The notes beneath the pieces are model-generated. The model was not told the origin of the DNA and searched no databases. It was given only the letters and a program-made list of their open reading frames with translations. This document shows positions 7,337-12,741 of a stretch of DNA of 29,748 nt, one piece after another. The stretch's first letter is position 1, and each line of letters starts with the position of its first letter. This stretch comes from Synechococcus sp. GTDB taxonomy: Bacteria; Cyanobacteriota; Cyanobacteriia; Thermostichales; PCC-7336. The stretch covers positions 1 to 29,748 of the forward strand of contig JBFRWD010000069.1 in NCBI GenBank assembly GCA_051439425.1. The letters are read 5' to 3'. Both the position numbers and the translations under genes were made by a program.

Positions 7337-7652
7337 AAATTGAGATGGGACGCTGCGTCACCATTATGGAAGAGTCGCGTAGGCCTGAGAACAAGATGGA
7401 GATAGCAAAAAAGCTTAACTGAACCCAGTAGTCTCGAAGGCTTGCTATGGGGGTCCCTCAAGCGACGAATGCATTGAAGCAAGGCAGAGAGAGCAAGTAT
7501 CCATCACTCCTAAACTGACCGATCGCTAGTCGTTCTACGACATTGACAGCAAGCAACTCGCGAGCCACTATTGCATTCTTAATTTTTTCTTTACATAAAT
7601 CTACAGGAAGTCCATTGACTCTACTGGTTGCCTCGGGATAGTTTTAATGCAG

Positions 7653-7716
7653 GTGAGGAGTGAAACAGAAAAGCCTTTGGGGTCGAAACACGGCAAGACT
7701 CCCAAAGGCTTTTTTT
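7653..7716 (+). ncRNA. yfr2: Yfr2-family cyanobacterial small RNA
   Basis: 5' GTGAGGAGTGAAAC motif, a long stem (AAAAGCCTTTGGG/CCCAAAGGCTTTT) presenting GAAACACGGCAAGA in the loop, then a T-tract. Both motifs match the Yfr2 consensus as I recall it. AT-rich -10-like sequence just upstream. Confidence 0.8.
7669..7716 (+). terminator. Intrinsic terminator-like hairpin forming the 3' part of the Yfr2-like RNA
   Basis: 13-bp perfect inverted repeat followed by a run of T. Confidence 0.7.
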
Positions 7717-7911
7717 GATAAAAGGTTTTGTGTGAACACCAGCAACGTTAAGAGCTTTGTTGTGCTGGCTAACGAATAACCTGCTGGGCTGTTGCAGCCA
7801 GCCAGCAGCAATTGACGGCATTATCTCCGATGCGTGGGTATCGGACTCTATTGAGTGCAATCGTGGGAGGCAGTAGGCTACGAAGGCCAACTGCTGTCCG
7901 TTCATTCTGCT

Positions 7912-9465
7912 ATGTCCGAATCTGCCTTGCCCGCCCTCATTCAGCACATGCTGAAATCCGACTTCTACCCCCATGATGTGCAAGAGCCCATCCAGCTCCT
8001 GCAAACTCATATTTCCTACGTGCTGCTGACCGGAGAGTTTGCCTACAAGGTGAAGAAGCCTATGAATTTTGGCTTCCTAGACTTCACCACGTTGGAGAAG
8101 CGGCGTTTCTTCATTCAAGAGGAATTGCGCTTAAATCAGCGGGGGGCCGCCGAGCTTTACCTAGAAGTGCTAGCAATCTCTAAGCATGAGTCGGGAGACT
8201 ACGAGCTTGGGGGCACTGGAGAGGCCGTGGAATACACCTTGAAAATGCGCCAGTTTCCCCAAGAAACTCTGCTGCCTCAGCTCTTCGATCGCGGCGAGCT
8301 AACCCCCGATCTAGTGGTGGCCTTGGCCAAAGAGATTGCTAGTTTCCACAGCAACCTGACTACCAGCGATCGCATCAGTAGCTTTGGCTCTGTGGCTGGA
8401 GTACGGGCAGCATTTGACGAAAACTACGAACAAACTGCAGGCTTTATCGGTGGGCCGCAAACCCAAGAGCAGTTTGACCAAACGAAGGCACTCACTGACA
8501 GATTCTTTGCCGAACAGGCAGAGATGCTAGAGCGCCGGGTACAGGGTGGCTTCGTGCGAGAGTGCCACGGCGATTTGCACCTGGGCAATATCTGCTACTG
8601 GAACAATCGCTTTTATCTATTTGATTGCATCGAATTCAATGAACCCTTTCGGTTTGTAGATGTGATGTACGACATTGCCTACATTGTCATGGATTTGCAG
8701 TTGCGCAAGCGCCCCGACCTCAGTGCCCTCTTCCTCAACACTTACATCGAACACACCGGCGATTACGAAGGCCTGCAGGTGCTGCCTCTATATGTCAGTA
8801 GGCAATCCTATGTAAGGGCCAAAGTGACTTCGTTTATGCTGGGCGACCCAGCTATTTCTGCTGAAACGAAAGCTGAAGTAACGGCAACGGCAGCAAAATA
8901 CTACCAGTTGGCATTGCAATGCCTGCAGCCTCGCTCAGGCTCCCTATATGTCATGTGCGGATTATCCGGCTCCGGGAAAAGCACCGTGGCTAGCGCGCTC
9001 TCTCAAACGCTCGATGCCATCCATATTCGCTCCGATGCTGTGCGTAAGCACCTGGCAGGAATTAACCTCTACGAGCGTGGCAGTTCGGGGGAATTTGGCA
9101 GCGGCATCTACACCCCGGAGATGACCCAAAAAACCTACGATCGCCTGCAACAGTTGGGGATTCTGTTAGCCTCGCTCGGATATCCGGTGATTCTCGATGC
9201 CAAGTACGACAAGCAGGCATTGCGACAGGCAATCGCTAATGCCGCCAAACAACATCAGCTACCTTTAAAATTCATTTCTTGCGAAGCTCCTCTGGAGACC
9301 ATCCGCCAATGGCTGGGAGCTCGCACTGGAGATATTGCCGATGCCACTGCCGACCTCTTAGACAAACAGATTCAGGCATTTGAACCATTGACGACTGAAG
9401 AACAAATGATGACAAACGTAGTTCGCACCGATGGAGATTTAGCCGCACAAATTGCCAAATTCTAA
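7912..9465 (+). CDS. Bifunctional aminoglycoside-phosphotransferase-like kinase / AAA-33 (gluconate-kinase-like) P-loop protein
   Basis: QTHISYV, YKVKKP, ECHGDLHLGNI and FDCIEFN kinase motifs; C-terminal Walker A GLSGSGKS and RSDAVRK. ATG at 7912 preferred over 7855. Confidence 0.9.
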   Translation: MSESALPALIQHMLKSDFYPHDVQEPIQLLQTHISYVLLTGEFAYKVKKPMNFGFLDFTTLEKRRFFIQEELRLNQRGAAELYLEVLAISKHESGDYELGGTGEAVEYTLKMRQFPQETLLPQLFDRGELTPDLVVALAKEIASFHSNLTTSDRISSFGSVAGVRAAFDENYEQTAGFIGGPQTQEQFDQTKALTDRFFAEQAEMLERRVQGGFVRECHGDLHLGNICYWNNRFYLFDCIEFNEPFRFVDVMYDIAYIVMDLQLRKRPDLSALFLNTYIEHTGDYEGLQVLPLYVSRQSYVRAKVTSFMLGDPAISAETKAEVTATAAKYYQLALQCLQPRSGSLYVMCGLSGSGKSTVASALSQTLDAIHIRSDAVRKHLAGINLYERGSSGEFGSGIYTPEMTQKTYDRLQQLGILLASLGYPVILDAKYDKQALRQAIANAAKQHQLPLKFISCEAPLETIRQWLGARTGDIADATADLLDKQIQAFEPLTTEEQMMTNVVRTDGDLAAQIAKF

Positions 9466-9588
9466 GCCAATCAGACTCCTGGAATCCCTCATATATTTAC
9501 TGGGGGACTTCTCAAGGATCTACGATCTGCACGACTCGCTCGAACAGTCTGAGAGCAAATACAGTGACGACAGTGTCAAACCATGTCA

Positions 9589-10203
9589 TCACCGTTTGGC
9601 TAACACAAATAAGCCAGTTCCAAACAGCACAATTGCAGACGCATAGTTCATAGCCAGCCGTACTTTGGGATGAATGAGAAACGTCCGAGCCCGATCGGCT
9701 AAAAAGGCATACCCAACCTTCACTCCACCAACAGCGATCGCCGCAACCCCCAAAATTGTCCCGACATGCCAAGTCGATAGGGACGATACATCCACAAACG
9801 CCGGAAAGAATCCAACGTAAAACACAATGGCTTTGTAATCTCCTAAGGTAATCAGCAGCCCACTGATAAAACTCGATAGTAATGACGAGTCATCGCGACA
9901 TTCAACATCATGTAGATCGGCGCTAGAAGACCACAATTGGATAGCAAGCCAAATTAAATACAGGCCCCCAACATACTGAAGAGCGACAAACAGATACGTC
10001 ATCGACTCGGCGATCGCGGCCAATCCCAAAACTGCCGCAATGATGAATGCAAAATCTCCAGCGACAATTCCTATCGCCATTGCTAAACCGCCAGCGAATC
10101 CTGAAGAGAGAGACCTCGCAACAACGGCAAAAACGCTGGGACTTGGGAGCAGGGCCAAAACAAACATGGCTCCAAACAATGCAAACACATTACCCAGCGT
10201 CAT
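9589..10203 (-). CDS. LysE/RhtB family amino-acid exporter
   Basis: About 6 hydrophobic helices, LLPSPS (PGP-like) N-terminal motif, GGLYLIWLA, ITLGDYKAIVFY (NPK-like). Confidence 0.9.
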   Translation of the reverse strand: MTLGNVFALFGAMFVLALLPSPSVFAVVARSLSSGFAGGLAMAIGIVAGDFAFIIAAVLGLAAIAESMTYLFVALQYVGGLYLIWLAIQLWSSSADLHDVECRDDSSLLSSFISGLLITLGDYKAIVFYVGFFPAFVDVSSLSTWHVGTILGVAAIAVGGVKVGYAFLADRARTFLIHPKVRLAMNYASAIVLFGTGLFVLAKR

Positions 10204-10299
10204 ATAGTGTTTGCCATTTCAGTTCGAACGAAAGTTTCCAAGCACAGTCAGGGTCGAACATAGCTGAAATATCTACAGTGGTATGGCCACTGCCATAAC
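10204..10299. repeat. Copy 1 of a ~95-bp degenerate, internally palindromic direct repeat
   Basis: Manual alignment to 11134-11228 gives ~71/96 identity with one gap. Contains ATTTCAG...CTGAAAT and CAGTGG-N5-CCACTG inverted repeats. Abuts the LysE start codon. Confidence 0.85.
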
Positions 10300-10335
10300 A
10301 TTCCGCCAATTGAATCAGCTGGAGTTCTGCAAGCG

Positions 10336-10719
10336 CTACAGCTCGTATATCTCCAGAGGCAAATCATCCGGATCTTTGAAAAACGTAAACCGTTTCCCCG
10401 TCAGCTCATCGAGTCGAATCGGTTCGGTATCGATCCCCAGCTCGGCTAACTCGTTTGCAGTGACATCAACATTAGTGACCCGGAACGCCAGATGGCGTAA
10501 TCCACAGGCCTCCGGTCGCGAGGGTCGCTGTGGCGGTACCGGAAACGAAAATAGTTCGAGTTGGCTGTCACCAATTCGGATATCCAGCTTGTACGACTGT
10601 CGCTCTGCCCGTAGCGTTTCTTCCAATAGTTCGGCTCCCGGCAGCGACAGATAGAAGCGCTTCGATCGCTCGTAATCCGAGCAAATGATGGCAATGTGAT
10701 GAACCCCAAGAAATGACAA
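10336..10719 (-). CDS. VOC/glyoxalase family protein (YaeR-like)
   Basis: HHIAIICSDYERSKRFY, SYKLD, LELFSF, RPSRPEACGLRHLAF, FFKDPDDLPLEIYE. TTG start immediately after the upstream TAA. Confidence 0.92.
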   Translation of the reverse strand: MSFLGVHHIAIICSDYERSKRFYLSLPGAELLEETLRAERQSYKLDIRIGDSQLELFSFPVPPQRPSRPEACGLRHLAFRVTNVDVTANELAELGIDTEPIRLDELTGKRFTFFKDPDDLPLEIYEL

Positions 10720-11118
10720 TTAGTTATCCTCCAGTCGCTCGACAGTAATCTCCCATCCCGGTAAATCCCACCAACTGCCGCGCTCTTCCGATTCCGCCCA
10801 AAATTCCAAACGCTCCACATCCCCATTCATCAGCGTCAACTGAGGATAGTCGGGATAATCCACATCCTGAGACTCAATAATCGTCTCCCCCAACATCGTC
10901 ATACTGACCGACAGTCCATCCTCTACCTGCAGCACCTCTTCCCCTTCACCAGACACTGCATCATCATCAAACGAGAACATCCCTTCAAACGTGTTGCCGG
11001 CCAAGCTCCCTTCAGTTACCTCAACAGTAAAGCGATAGGAAACTGGGGCTGCTTGAACCGGAGCGATCGGCAGTAGAGCATATGCGGCAAGGGCAAAAAC
11101 CGTAAAATGACGATACAC
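10720..11118 (-). CDS. Small acidic secreted hypothetical protein (resembles the beta-rich domain of cyanobacterial PEP-CTERM-type proteins, but has no sorting tail)
   Basis: GTG start with GAGG upstream; signal peptide ending PVQA-A; YRFTV...GSLAG..F.G.FSFDD...YP.L.....G pattern. Confidence 0.75.
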   Translation of the reverse strand: MYRHFTVFALAAYALLPIAPVQAAPVSYRFTVEVTEGSLAGNTFEGMFSFDDDAVSGEGEEVLQVEDGLSVSMTMLGETIIESQDVDYPDYPQLTLMNGDVERLEFWAESEERGSWWDLPGWEITVERLEDN

Positions 11119-11133
11119 TCGGACACCTCTGAG

Positions 11134-11228
11134 ATAGCGTTTTTCATTTCAGCAAGGACAAAGCTTTCCAACCACAGTTAGGGGTGGTATGGCTGAAATG
11201 TCCGCAGTGGTGTGGCCACTGCGGTAGC
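11134..11228. repeat. Copy 2 of the ~95-bp structured repeat
   Basis: Perfect CATTTCAGC/GCTGAAATG and CCGCAGTGG/CCACTGCGG stems; ends 15 bp upstream of the GTG start at 11118. Confidence 0.85.
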
Positions 11229-11329
11229 TGTTATCTGCTCACCATAATCCGGCCAGCCCCCAACCCTCAACCGAGGCAATCTCCTCGCACTTGGCATGTG
11301 CCCTCTGAATGCTAGAGCGGCAGCGTTAA

Positions 11330-11785
11330 TTACCGAAATAACCCGAACAACCCTTTGGGACGGCGCGGGGGAATGCGAAGTGGAGGAAGGTGTTGGCGAA
11401 GCTTGATGGCGTCAAAATCTGCTTGTAATGCATAGTCGCAAAGGGTTTCCACTTGCTCCTGCGACCAGTTGTGGTTGTCGATTAGCGATCGCACAGCCGC
11501 AATCAAATATGTTTCTGCCGCAAAGGCATCCTCTTGCAGTAGCTTCCCTGCCGCCGTAGCTTTGACAGAGGTTGGTTTCGATGTCGCCGGTACAGGTGTC
11601 CGCCGGATTTCGTAGCCATAACGAAACGTCTGTGCCCCACGCTCCCACTGGTTGATAAAGTCATCCACGTCTGCATCATTTCTGCATTCCGCCAATAGGG
11701 TTCCATTCACCTTGACGGCAAACCGTTCGTCAGGAAGGATTTCAACGGTCAGAGTAGCTTTGCGATCGAGCGATTTTTCTTTCAT
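11330..11785 (-). CDS. Hypothetical protein
   Basis: Clean ~150-aa ORF filling the gap, with protein-like composition and a HIP1 site. ATG at 11785 preferred over TTG at 11806. No family recognised. Confidence 0.65.
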   Translation of the reverse strand: MKEKSLDRKATLTVEILPDERFAVKVNGTLLAECRNDADVDDFINQWERGAQTFRYGYEIRRTPVPATSKPTSVKATAAGKLLQEDAFAAETYLIAAVRSLIDNHNWSQEQVETLCDYALQADFDAIKLRQHLPPLRIPPRRPKGLFGLFR

Positions 11786-11799
11786 GGCGACGCGAAGGG

Positions 11800-11832
11800 A
11801 TGTCAAACAAGATACTTAAATGTCAAACAAGA
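11800..11832. repeat. 13-bp direct repeat ATGTCAAACAAGA x2 with a 20-bp period
   Basis: Exact copies at 11800-11812 and 11820-11832 in a divergent promoter region. Confidence 0.75.
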
Positions 11833-12132
11833 ATGGGATAGCGTTTACGTCTGTCTATAAGACGGGGGAGAAATAGTGAAGCACCAGGTTTCGAGCCCAG
11901 CACATCCAGAATCACCCCTAGTCGATCCGAGCCAACTCAGAAACATTGCAACTACGACCCAGCGGTGACGGCCCAAACACGCATGAATCGAAAGAAACCA
12001 AGCTGGATAAGCCTGTCTTCGCCTTATTTCAGTCCTCGGTGCCAGAAAAACGTGTAAAAATTTAGAAAAACTATTATTGGCTCCCCAAGGGGATCGGTTA
12101 AGGTGAATTCGAATTCTCAAGAGAGTGAAGGC

Positions 12133-12741
12133 ATGGGAGATCGCGGTCCCTACCAAGTATTGGGGGTAGCTGAAGACGCTTCCTTCGAAGAAATCCAAAC
12201 CGCCCGCGATCGGCAACTGGCCGTGTTGAACCGCGAGGCCGAGCAGCAGGAAGTAGAACAAGCTTACGATGCTATCCTAATGCAGCGTTTGCGCCTGCGA
12301 AAAGAAGGAAGAATTCCAGTCCCCGACCGTATTCGATATCCCGATCGCGAGCAAGTCACCTCACAGCCAAAAGCCAAACCGCTGCGAAAAGAGGCCGTTC
12401 GAGAAAGCTGGGCCTCCGGCTGGGTTGATACCCCGTCCTCGCAAGATATCTGGCTGCCCTTCGCTATTATGGCTGGCCTAGCTAGTTTAACGTCGTTTTA
12501 TCAGGGCGATCGCTTTCCCAGCTGGTCGCTGGCTTTCGGGCTCCTTACCTCTCTCTACTTCCTTTACCGCAAGGAGAAGCGCTTCTGGCGGTCTCTGTTA
12601 ATTGCAGTTGGCGGCTTGTCGCTGGGAATGTTTTTTGCCTTTGCTGTTGTCAGCGGACTCACCTTGTCCAGCACATCCGTTCCTTTAACCGTGGCGCTGA
12701 GTCTGCTCGTGATGTGGTTGTTCACCGCCTTCTTACGGTAA
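12133..12741 (+). CDS. CPP1-like (DUF3353, J-like domain) membrane protein
   Basis: PYQVLGVAEDASFEEIQ...EQAYDAILMQRLRLRKEGRIPVPDRIRYP, followed by C-terminal TM helices ending FLR. ATG at 12133. Confidence 0.88.
   Translation: MGDRGPYQVLGVAEDASFEEIQTARDRQLAVLNREAEQQEVEQAYDAILMQRLRLRKEGRIPVPDRIRYPDREQVTSQPKAKPLRKEAVRESWASGWVDTPSSQDIWLPFAIMAGLASLTSFYQGDRFPSWSLAFGLLTSLYFLYRKEKRFWRSLLIAVGGLSLGMFFAFAVVSGLTLSSTSVPLTVALSLLVMWLFTAFLR

Follow-up and report, generated by a model that had tools for sequence, protein, structure and literature searches.

The two related repeats on the minus strand of the window, by which we mean the whole analysed stretch of 29,748 nucleotides, are in all likelihood independently inserted copies of one non-autonomous, TA-duplicating MITE of the IS630 type, about 93 nt in length. 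As far as tested, the family to which they belong appears to be distinct in sequence from known MITE families. In an earlier, sequence-only reading of this DNA the repeat pair had been put forward as a candidate novel system, and the existence of these two copies alone was to count against that idea; both repeats turned out to belong to a MITE family, of which 124 copies were found in the genome. One of the origins that had been proposed, a MITE relic, stands as to the MITE and fails as to the relic, as both ends are still present.

Both copies, each of about 95 nt, occupy non-coding DNA (window positions 10203-10297 and 11133-11226 in the register of the family model). The features of the region are as follows:

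9589..10203, minus strand: gene for a LysE-family exporter (Pfam PF01810, 3.8e-30), directly downstream of copy 1 and outside the element.
10203..10297, minus strand: copy 1 of the probable MITE, 95 nt including both flanking TA dinucleotides (nhmmer E of 1.5e-35 against the seed, over the full model length).
10336..10719, minus strand: gene for a glyoxalase/VOC-fold protein (Pfam PF00903, 1.6e-17), between the copies and outside the element; syntenic in G003:C70.
10720..11118, minus strand: ORF of 132 aa with a signal-peptide-like hydrophobic N-terminus (judged by eye), outside the element; syntenic in G003:C70.
11133..11226, minus strand: copy 2 of the probable MITE, 94 nt (nhmmer E of 1.4e-35; boundaries taken from the family model).
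11330..11806, minus strand: ORF of 158 aa, upstream of copy 2 and outside the element.

Copy 1, with 86% identity to the family consensus, shares one base with the start codon of the LysE gene (ORF 9589-10203): the A of its 3'-terminal TA, the last base of the element, is also the A of the LysE ATG. The homologue in the complete genome of the congener G002, where LysE lies elsewhere in the genome, aligns with the predicted protein from residue 1; in a second congener, G003 (genome 85% complete), LysE had no match. Copy 2 shares 84% identity with the consensus. The TA at its 3' end has degenerated into TC, and this end lies 14 nt ahead of the GTG at 11118 with which the secreted-protein ORF begins. 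The starts of the two copies are 930 nt apart and their identity in the model register is 75%. A MAFFT alignment of the pair with its flanks gave a mean column identity of 81%, and a repeat search of the window reported only a 34-nt core (10260-10293 and 11189-11222, 85% identity). Most of what had been read from the letters alone was thereby confirmed: two non-coding copies of about 95 bp, about 74% identical and 930 bp apart, with coordinates that were off by 1-2 nt; the position of copy 1 at the LysE ATG, now with the one-base overlap; and the LysE and VOC labels, which agree with the Pfam matches (PF01810 and PF00903). The placement of copy 2 before the secreted-protein start was also correct, at 14 nt instead of the 15 bp given. 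Neither the 132-aa ORF nor the 158-aa ORF matched a Pfam family.

The size of the family was determined in the window's own genome (G000), a draft assembly of 4.8 Mb in 182 contigs. A sequence search with copy 2 returned 40 scored matches among 81 candidates, and three rounds of iterated nhmmer at E≤1e-3 gave 120, 125 and 124 hits, at which point the search had converged. Near-full-length copies, defined as covering model positions ≤5 through ≥94, made up 79 of the 124. Members of the family are scattered one by one across at least 70 contigs, and immediately outside the terminal TA on each side their flanks are unrelated. Judged by the median identities (86% between copy and consensus, 76% between copy and copy), the copies are old. 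When the 79 near-full-length copies were extended to the model ends, the terminal TA was present on the left in 57, on the right in 61 and on both sides in 46. The nucleotides next to the element showed an asymmetric bias, with T at +1, next to the 3' TA, in 35/76 copies and G at -2 in 36/76, which is not explained by a simple palindromic TA target.

The consensus carries imperfect terminal inverted repeats of 28 nt that match at 20 of the 28 positions (manual count). At each end the tip reads TATAGC and positions 24-28 read GGACA, and the motifs that they share can be written as a terminal TATWGCAG and a subterminal GTYAGGACA (positions 20-28). Conservation peaks in columns 1-35 and 68-95 and reaches its minimum in columns 36-67, as expected if propagation depends on the ends only; the contrast between conserved palindromes and divergent linkers, noted before for the window pair, thus holds for the whole family. 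The strong 5' hairpin CAGTGG-N5-CCACTG (consensus positions 5-23) sits within the left inverted repeat, and in the long-range stem ATTTCAG/CTGAAAT a region just inside the left repeat pairs with the right repeat.

We then asked where else the family occurs. Among 40 relatives, the congener G003 was the sole genome with matches at E≤0.001 (22-24 scored, from 113 first-look candidates); the other 39, including the complete genome of G002, gave no match at this threshold. No match was found in 11 genomes of the same class from outside the order, and one weak copy (76%) was recorded in G001. When 185,579 species genomes (one genome per species, a set that may lack the window's own genome) were scanned with a 22-nt pattern taken from the 5' end, the pattern occurred in only two cyanobacterial MAGs, at 31 loci in one and a single locus in the other. 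As judged from these searches, the family is lineage-restricted and confined to one uncultured genus.

BLAST was used to compare the flanks of these 32 pattern-scan loci (31 from one MAG and one from the other) with G000. The element of locus L085 in G003 lies between TA and TA. In G000, the orthologous position (C77, ~39975) is empty and shows these flanks around a single TA; this filled/empty pair corresponds to a net insert of about 93 nt plus a 2-bp TA duplication. L085 is one of four G003 insertions that are absent at the orthologous G000 sites. For the others (L067, L077 and L082) the absence in G000 was seen, with the exact TA impossible to locate. One site carries a seemingly shared insertion (L093 and G000:C21:2181-2276). 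A nested insertion also points to TA duplication: at G000:C14:8072-8166 a full copy sits inside another copy, and the single TA of the host copy is now found on both sides. Since the same nested structure occurs in G003 (C139 and locus L069) and these dimers may go back to one event, they were counted as a single observation of duplication.

The ends of the element led to the IS630 family. The genome contains 12 matches to DDE_3 (PF13358), several of them at contig ends. In the element C112:1167-2124, an ORF with HTH_Tnp_IS630 (7.4e-10) and an ORF with DDE_3 (1.8e-36) occupy two frames, and its 28-nt inverted repeats start with TATWGCAG and finish with GTCAGGACA. In at least two further multi-copy, contig-breaking IS types, the 28-nt ends are arranged like the two ends of the MITE. 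A pattern describing this layout matched the genome 96 times, 55 times within MITE copies, and the other 41 matches include IS ends. On this sequence comparison, a family relationship of the MITE ends to IS630-family ends is clear. A match to a known IS end, which the earlier reading had named as evidence against a novel system, is borne out for the terminal and subterminal motifs, which are common to the MITE and IS630-family elements, and fails at the level of the complete ends, as the best IS ends match the MITE ends at about 17 of 28 positions (manual count). With this degree of identity and no exact partner, the mobilizing transposase can only be inferred. No autonomous element with ends identical to those of the MITE was found in the 182-contig draft, in which IS copies lie at contig ends, so that the true partner could be unassembled. 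A 15-nt end-like motif with ≤3 mismatches had 506 matches, 332 of them outside MITEs, and was too noisy for locating a partner IS; when ≤2 mismatches were allowed, the 2.5 kb around each DDE_3 locus contained no good 15-nt MITE-like end.

The strong subterminal hairpin at consensus positions 5-23 could also suggest a palindromic element of REP or IS200/IS605 origin, mobilized through single-stranded hairpins by an HUH enzyme (RAYT/TnpA), and IS200/IS605 elements are common in cyanobacteria. Elements of that origin, however, lack terminal inverted repeats and target duplication and have hairpins at both ends. The present element has inverted repeats, a TA duplication and a hairpin at one end only, and its ends resemble those of IS630-family elements in the same genome. 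We therefore regard this origin as exceedingly unlikely and retain the IS630-type MITE.

Such a MITE would consist of a non-coding unit of about 93 nt with 28-nt imperfect terminal inverted repeats, flanked by the duplicated TA. A DDE transposase provided in trans by a related IS630-family element would bind the inverted repeats and excise the element, which would then be pasted into a TA dinucleotide with duplication of the TA. This cut-and-paste scheme is carried over from the family, the in vitro demonstration being that described for ISY100 (PMC2170065). ISY100, an IS630-family element of Synechocystis, is described in the same source as 947 bp long with 24-bp imperfect inverted repeats; it is reported there to insert almost only into TA, which is duplicated, and 30 bp of each end are given as sufficient for transposition (PMC2170065). 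Copy 1 would have used the TA of the TATG at the start of LysE as its target, and copy 2 would have entered the spacer upstream of the secreted-protein/VOC gene pair. The internal palindromes, which lie partly within the inverted repeats, would be inherited from a master sequence, with no RNA structure being maintained. Selection against insertions in genes may account for the intergenic persistence of the copies.

In the window, the position of the two copies on either side of a two-gene unit had led to the proposal of a non-canonical cassette recombination site, in which the repeats would be attC-like and the 930-nt unit with the secreted-protein and VOC genes a mobile cassette. The arrangement of short, unrelated, co-oriented genes with imperfect palindromes between them fits this idea. 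The dispersal and the ends of the copies, the gene order in G003 and the sequencing data nevertheless speak against it.

The identity of the window pair (75%) lies at the 47th percentile of all copy pairs, and as nearest relatives of each other the two copies rank only 53rd or 31st of 74. By these sequence measures the window copies look like independent insertions and a local duplication is disfavoured. Their similarity is far above chance solely because both are members of the 124-copy family. By our own arithmetic, 124 copies in 4.8 Mb should leave about three neighbour gaps below 1 kb by chance; among separate full-length copies, only the window pair is spaced more closely than 1 kb, and several further pairs are separated by 1.3-2.5 kb. 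The bracketing of the two-gene unit is incidental.

In G003 an unrelated P-loop ORF is followed, in this order, by the VOC and secreted-protein genes, a 151-aa ORF and a CPP1-like gene, with neither LysE nor a MITE. The counterpart of the 158-aa ORF adjoins the secreted-protein gene there, with no MITE between them. This synteny around a site that lacks the copy-2 element indicates that the genes between the repeats are resident and were not delivered as a cassette by the repeats. The copy-2 site is thus filled in G000, and the orthologous G003 spacer is without the element; the spacer has diverged, so that it does not provide an empty site at base level. Copy 1 is located at a synteny break and has no orthologous site in G003, where the unrelated P-loop protein stands to the left of VOC.

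Nine sequencing runs were available, eight of which covered part of the region, and the contigs of four DNA runs were examined. In these contigs we saw no empty allele of either window copy, and none joined precisely across either copy or across the 930-nt unit. In X2, a related strain (22 differences in 1013 nt), copy 1 occupies the same position and is spanned by one contig; contigs terminate within copy 2. Contig joints from 10223-10251 to 11192 had the internal sequence of other family members, or unknown content, between the two sides; these joints are other copies and do not reflect excision of the 930-nt unit. Read depth was several-fold higher over both window copies, an effect of the repeat family. 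Family-wide, the copies are scattered singly over the contigs without forming arrays, and their ends are inverted repeats with a TA duplication and without an attC core. The sequence-only reading itself recorded no recombinase gene in the window. Taken with the synteny of the VOC gene, the secreted-protein gene and the next upstream gene in G003, these results leave the cassette site with a practically negligible probability, and the MITE copies are best treated as separate insertions beside resident genes.

An undescribed cis-regulatory RNA, that is a riboswitch or leader placed upstream of the genes that it controls, had been the other proposal. Both window copies do lie directly upstream of co-oriented genes, and the minus-strand RNAs of both fold better than their shuffled counterparts (z of -2.0 and -3.2 for the two copies). 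The plus strand of copy 2, however, folds equally well (z of -3.6), and folding on both strands is expected of a DNA palindrome. As RNA.alifold returned an empty structure for the 75 full-length copies, the MFE fold of the consensus was used to examine pairing. The consensus stems were paired in 86.1% of the cells, compared with 85.3 ± 0.3% when the 3' partners were shuffled, indicating that the stems decay about as fast as independent mutation predicts. Double changes were seen in 25 cells against 14.8 ± 4.2 in the shuffles (2 of 500 shuffles reached 25, and slid registers gave 21-35); subfamily relatedness could account for this slight excess. Rfam 15 had no match on either copy, whether at the gathering score over the whole window or at E≤10 over 10000-11500, and neither copy contained a sigma-70-like promoter or an intrinsic terminator in a consensus scan of positions 9400-12200.

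The genomic contexts of the copies were counted with our own longest-ORF proxy as the gene model. Of the 124 copies, 103 lie wholly outside ORFs of ≥100 aa, compared with 14% of 5000 random 95-nt positions. Tandem contexts comprise 36 co-oriented and 25 anti-oriented copies; a further 30 are of the convergent and 21 of the divergent type, 7 lie in ORFs and 5 at contig edges. This mix is close to the background of intergenic types, so there is no orientation bias. With 124 copies beside unrelated genes, no such bias, no covariation beyond that of shuffles and no Rfam match, a cis-regulatory RNA is very unlikely, and the structured appearance of the repeats is attributed to the DNA palindromes of the MITE.

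A side observation concerns the junction of copy 1 with the LysE start codon. Full-length copies with flanks of 400 nt numbered 76. In nine of them the terminal A of the element is also the first base of an ATG, and in five of the 76 this 3'-junction ATG opens an ORF through the whole 133-codon flank (4/75 when the window copy is left out). With TA sites and orientations drawn at random from intergenic DNA, 0.38 such fusions would be expected (P ~4e-5). The 5' ends show five ATGs, none of which opens more than 17 codons. The five predicted junction ORFs look like real proteins: LysE and products of 267, 156, 474 and 381 aa. The 381-aa product carries a GGGIIG nucleotide-binding motif (residues 14-19), and the four genes other than LysE are on the G000 contigs C141, C178, C180 and C26. 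The junction test was made post hoc, prompted by the window copy. The 3' flank could be read in 30 of the pattern-scan copies, 29 of them from G003, and none of the 30 had a junction ATG that opened a long ORF. A count of distances to starts, in which 16 of 57 3' ends lay within 30 nt of a start, was set aside as partly an artefact, since start codons inside the element lengthen the longest-ORF proxies. The excess of start-codon junctions is unexplained and is given here as a side note only.

One reading of these junctions would be an exapted MITE: its 3' end would function as a portable 5' leader, as the context of a start codon or as a weak outward promoter, and fusions to gene starts would be retained by selection. 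The five fusions among 76 copies, against 0.38 expected and none at the 5' ends, agree with it, and a stable hairpin at the start codon in the opposite orientation could explain the asymmetry. Against it stand the post hoc nature of the test, the lower figure without the window copy, the fact that the starts are predicted ones except for LysE, the 0/30 result in the nearly all congeneric pattern-scan copies and the lack of a sigma-70-like promoter in either window copy. We consider exaptation unlikely; if true, it would mean that insertions into the TA of a TATG start are kept, in a single orientation, for the usable start of translation or transcription that the element provides, and that the family rewires the expression of genes such as that of the LysE exporter. 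The insertion of a MITE into TA, as set out above, remains the preferred account of copy 1; should the start-codon fusions turn out to be functional, and only then, the family would be informative on how MITEs rewire gene expression.

For annotation purposes, we suggest masking the repeat in this genus as a MITE family instead of labelling it a riboswitch or an integron-like site. The family marks synteny breaks, such as the one beside LysE, supplies insertion-polymorphism markers between congeners and points to the IS630-family elements that fragment the assembly.

MITEs are a familiar feature of cyanobacterial genomes; Nezha, the MaeMITE groups and thousands of elements in a 17-genome survey are described in PMC3184786. 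The present family most resembles bacterial MITEs derived from IS630/Tc1-mariner elements, for which ISY100 of Synechocystis PCC 6803 is the mechanistic reference and with which it shares the TA duplication, imperfect inverted repeats of 24-28 bp (reported as sufficient in cis for ISY100; PMC2170065) and the occurrence, in the same genome, of DDE_3/HTH_Tnp_IS630 transposases with the same end layout. Compared by description with ISY100 as presented in PMC2170065, it differs in being non-coding and only about 93 nt long. Nezha, found in Anabaena variabilis and Nostoc (Zhou et al. 2008) and described as ~130-170 bp long with ends in common with ISNpu3, is likewise a cyanobacterial MITE with IS-like inverted repeats, flanking direct repeats, a stable predicted fold and filled and empty sites between related species (PMC3184786). 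Again by description, the present element differs from Nezha as given in that source in its length of about 95 nt and in having its 5' pattern in two uncultured cyanobacterial MAGs only, among the 185,579 species genomes scanned. It also recalls Correia, ERIC, RUP and the MaeMITE groups of Microcystis, described as ~100-150 nt long, present in many copies, intergenic and forming stable hairpins when transcribed (PMC3184786). Effects on transcripts are a known feature of Correia and ERIC. In sequence the present family is, as far as tested by the search of Rfam, unrelated to these elements.

In the Synechococcus sp. genome (G000), the ATG of a long open reading frame begins with the 3'-terminal A of the approximately 95-nt IS630-type MITE in 5 out of 76 full-length copies, where 0.38 would be expected; this count was made post hoc, prompted by the copy that touches the LysE ATG in the window (copy 1), and apart from LysE the starts are putative. 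The junctions are:

G000 C141:33172
G000 C178:24688
G000 C180:1749
G000 C26:10829
window 10203 (-), copy 1 at LysE

No junction ATG opening a long ORF was found at the 5' ends of the same 76 copies, nor at the 3' ends of any of 30 MITE copies with a readable 3' flank, all but one from the congener G003. The 3' TA is directly followed by T in 35 of the 76 copies, and 36 carry G at position -2 relative to the 5' end.

The gene order of the two genomes diverges exactly at copy 1 (window 9466-10335 versus locus L042, G003:C70). To the left of the VOC-fold gene, G000 carries an AAA_33/APH-like gene and LysE, whereas G003 carries an unrelated P-loop (ABC-like) ORF; LysE was not found in G003, a genome 85% complete. 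An RNA family match was observed in the window:

7647-7718 (+), Cyano-1 RNA (RF01701; Rfam score 53.5 bits against a gathering score of 41, E 8e-07)

Roughly 140 nt separate this match from the downstream GTG of the 536-aa AAA_33/APH-like ORF (7855-9465), and an ORF on the minus strand (7621-8010) overlaps it. The octamer GCGATCGC, the HIP1 motif, is present in many of the repeat listings of the whole window, as would be expected of cyanobacterial DNA.

Both nested and shortened forms of the MITE were recorded:

G000:C14:8037-8223, nested "dimer"
L063 (G003:C139:4969-5153), nested "dimer"
L069, nested "dimer"
G000 C74:50203-50238, very short derivative
G000 C87:2687-2728, very short derivative
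G000 C104:5166-5238, very short derivative

In all three dimers a second MITE is inserted at the identical internal TA of the host MITE, and the two fully read ones (G000:C14 and G003:C139) share an identical base change just after the insert. The approximately 188-nt dimer may have spread as a unit in its own right. The short derivatives (36-73 nt), barely more than two facing ends, were not picked up by the nhmmer family search of G000; one has two 3'-type ends.

The G003 insertion L085 has a clean TA empty site in G000 (within C77:39596-40275). This G000 region matches the DDE_3 transposase domain and the MITE lies inside its G003 orthologue, therefore it landed in an IS-like gene.

Insertion sequences of the IS630 family occur in G000 itself in three or more types, whose 28-nt ends share one layout:

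listed first: C81, C174, C61, C45, C104, C92, C58
listed second: C177, C23, C30, C65, C87, C78
listed third: C112:1167-2124

Copies are often positioned at contig ends, and these elements are thus multi-copy and fragment the assembly. In the C112 copy, the transposase is split over two frames, an HTH ORF and a DDE_3 ORF.
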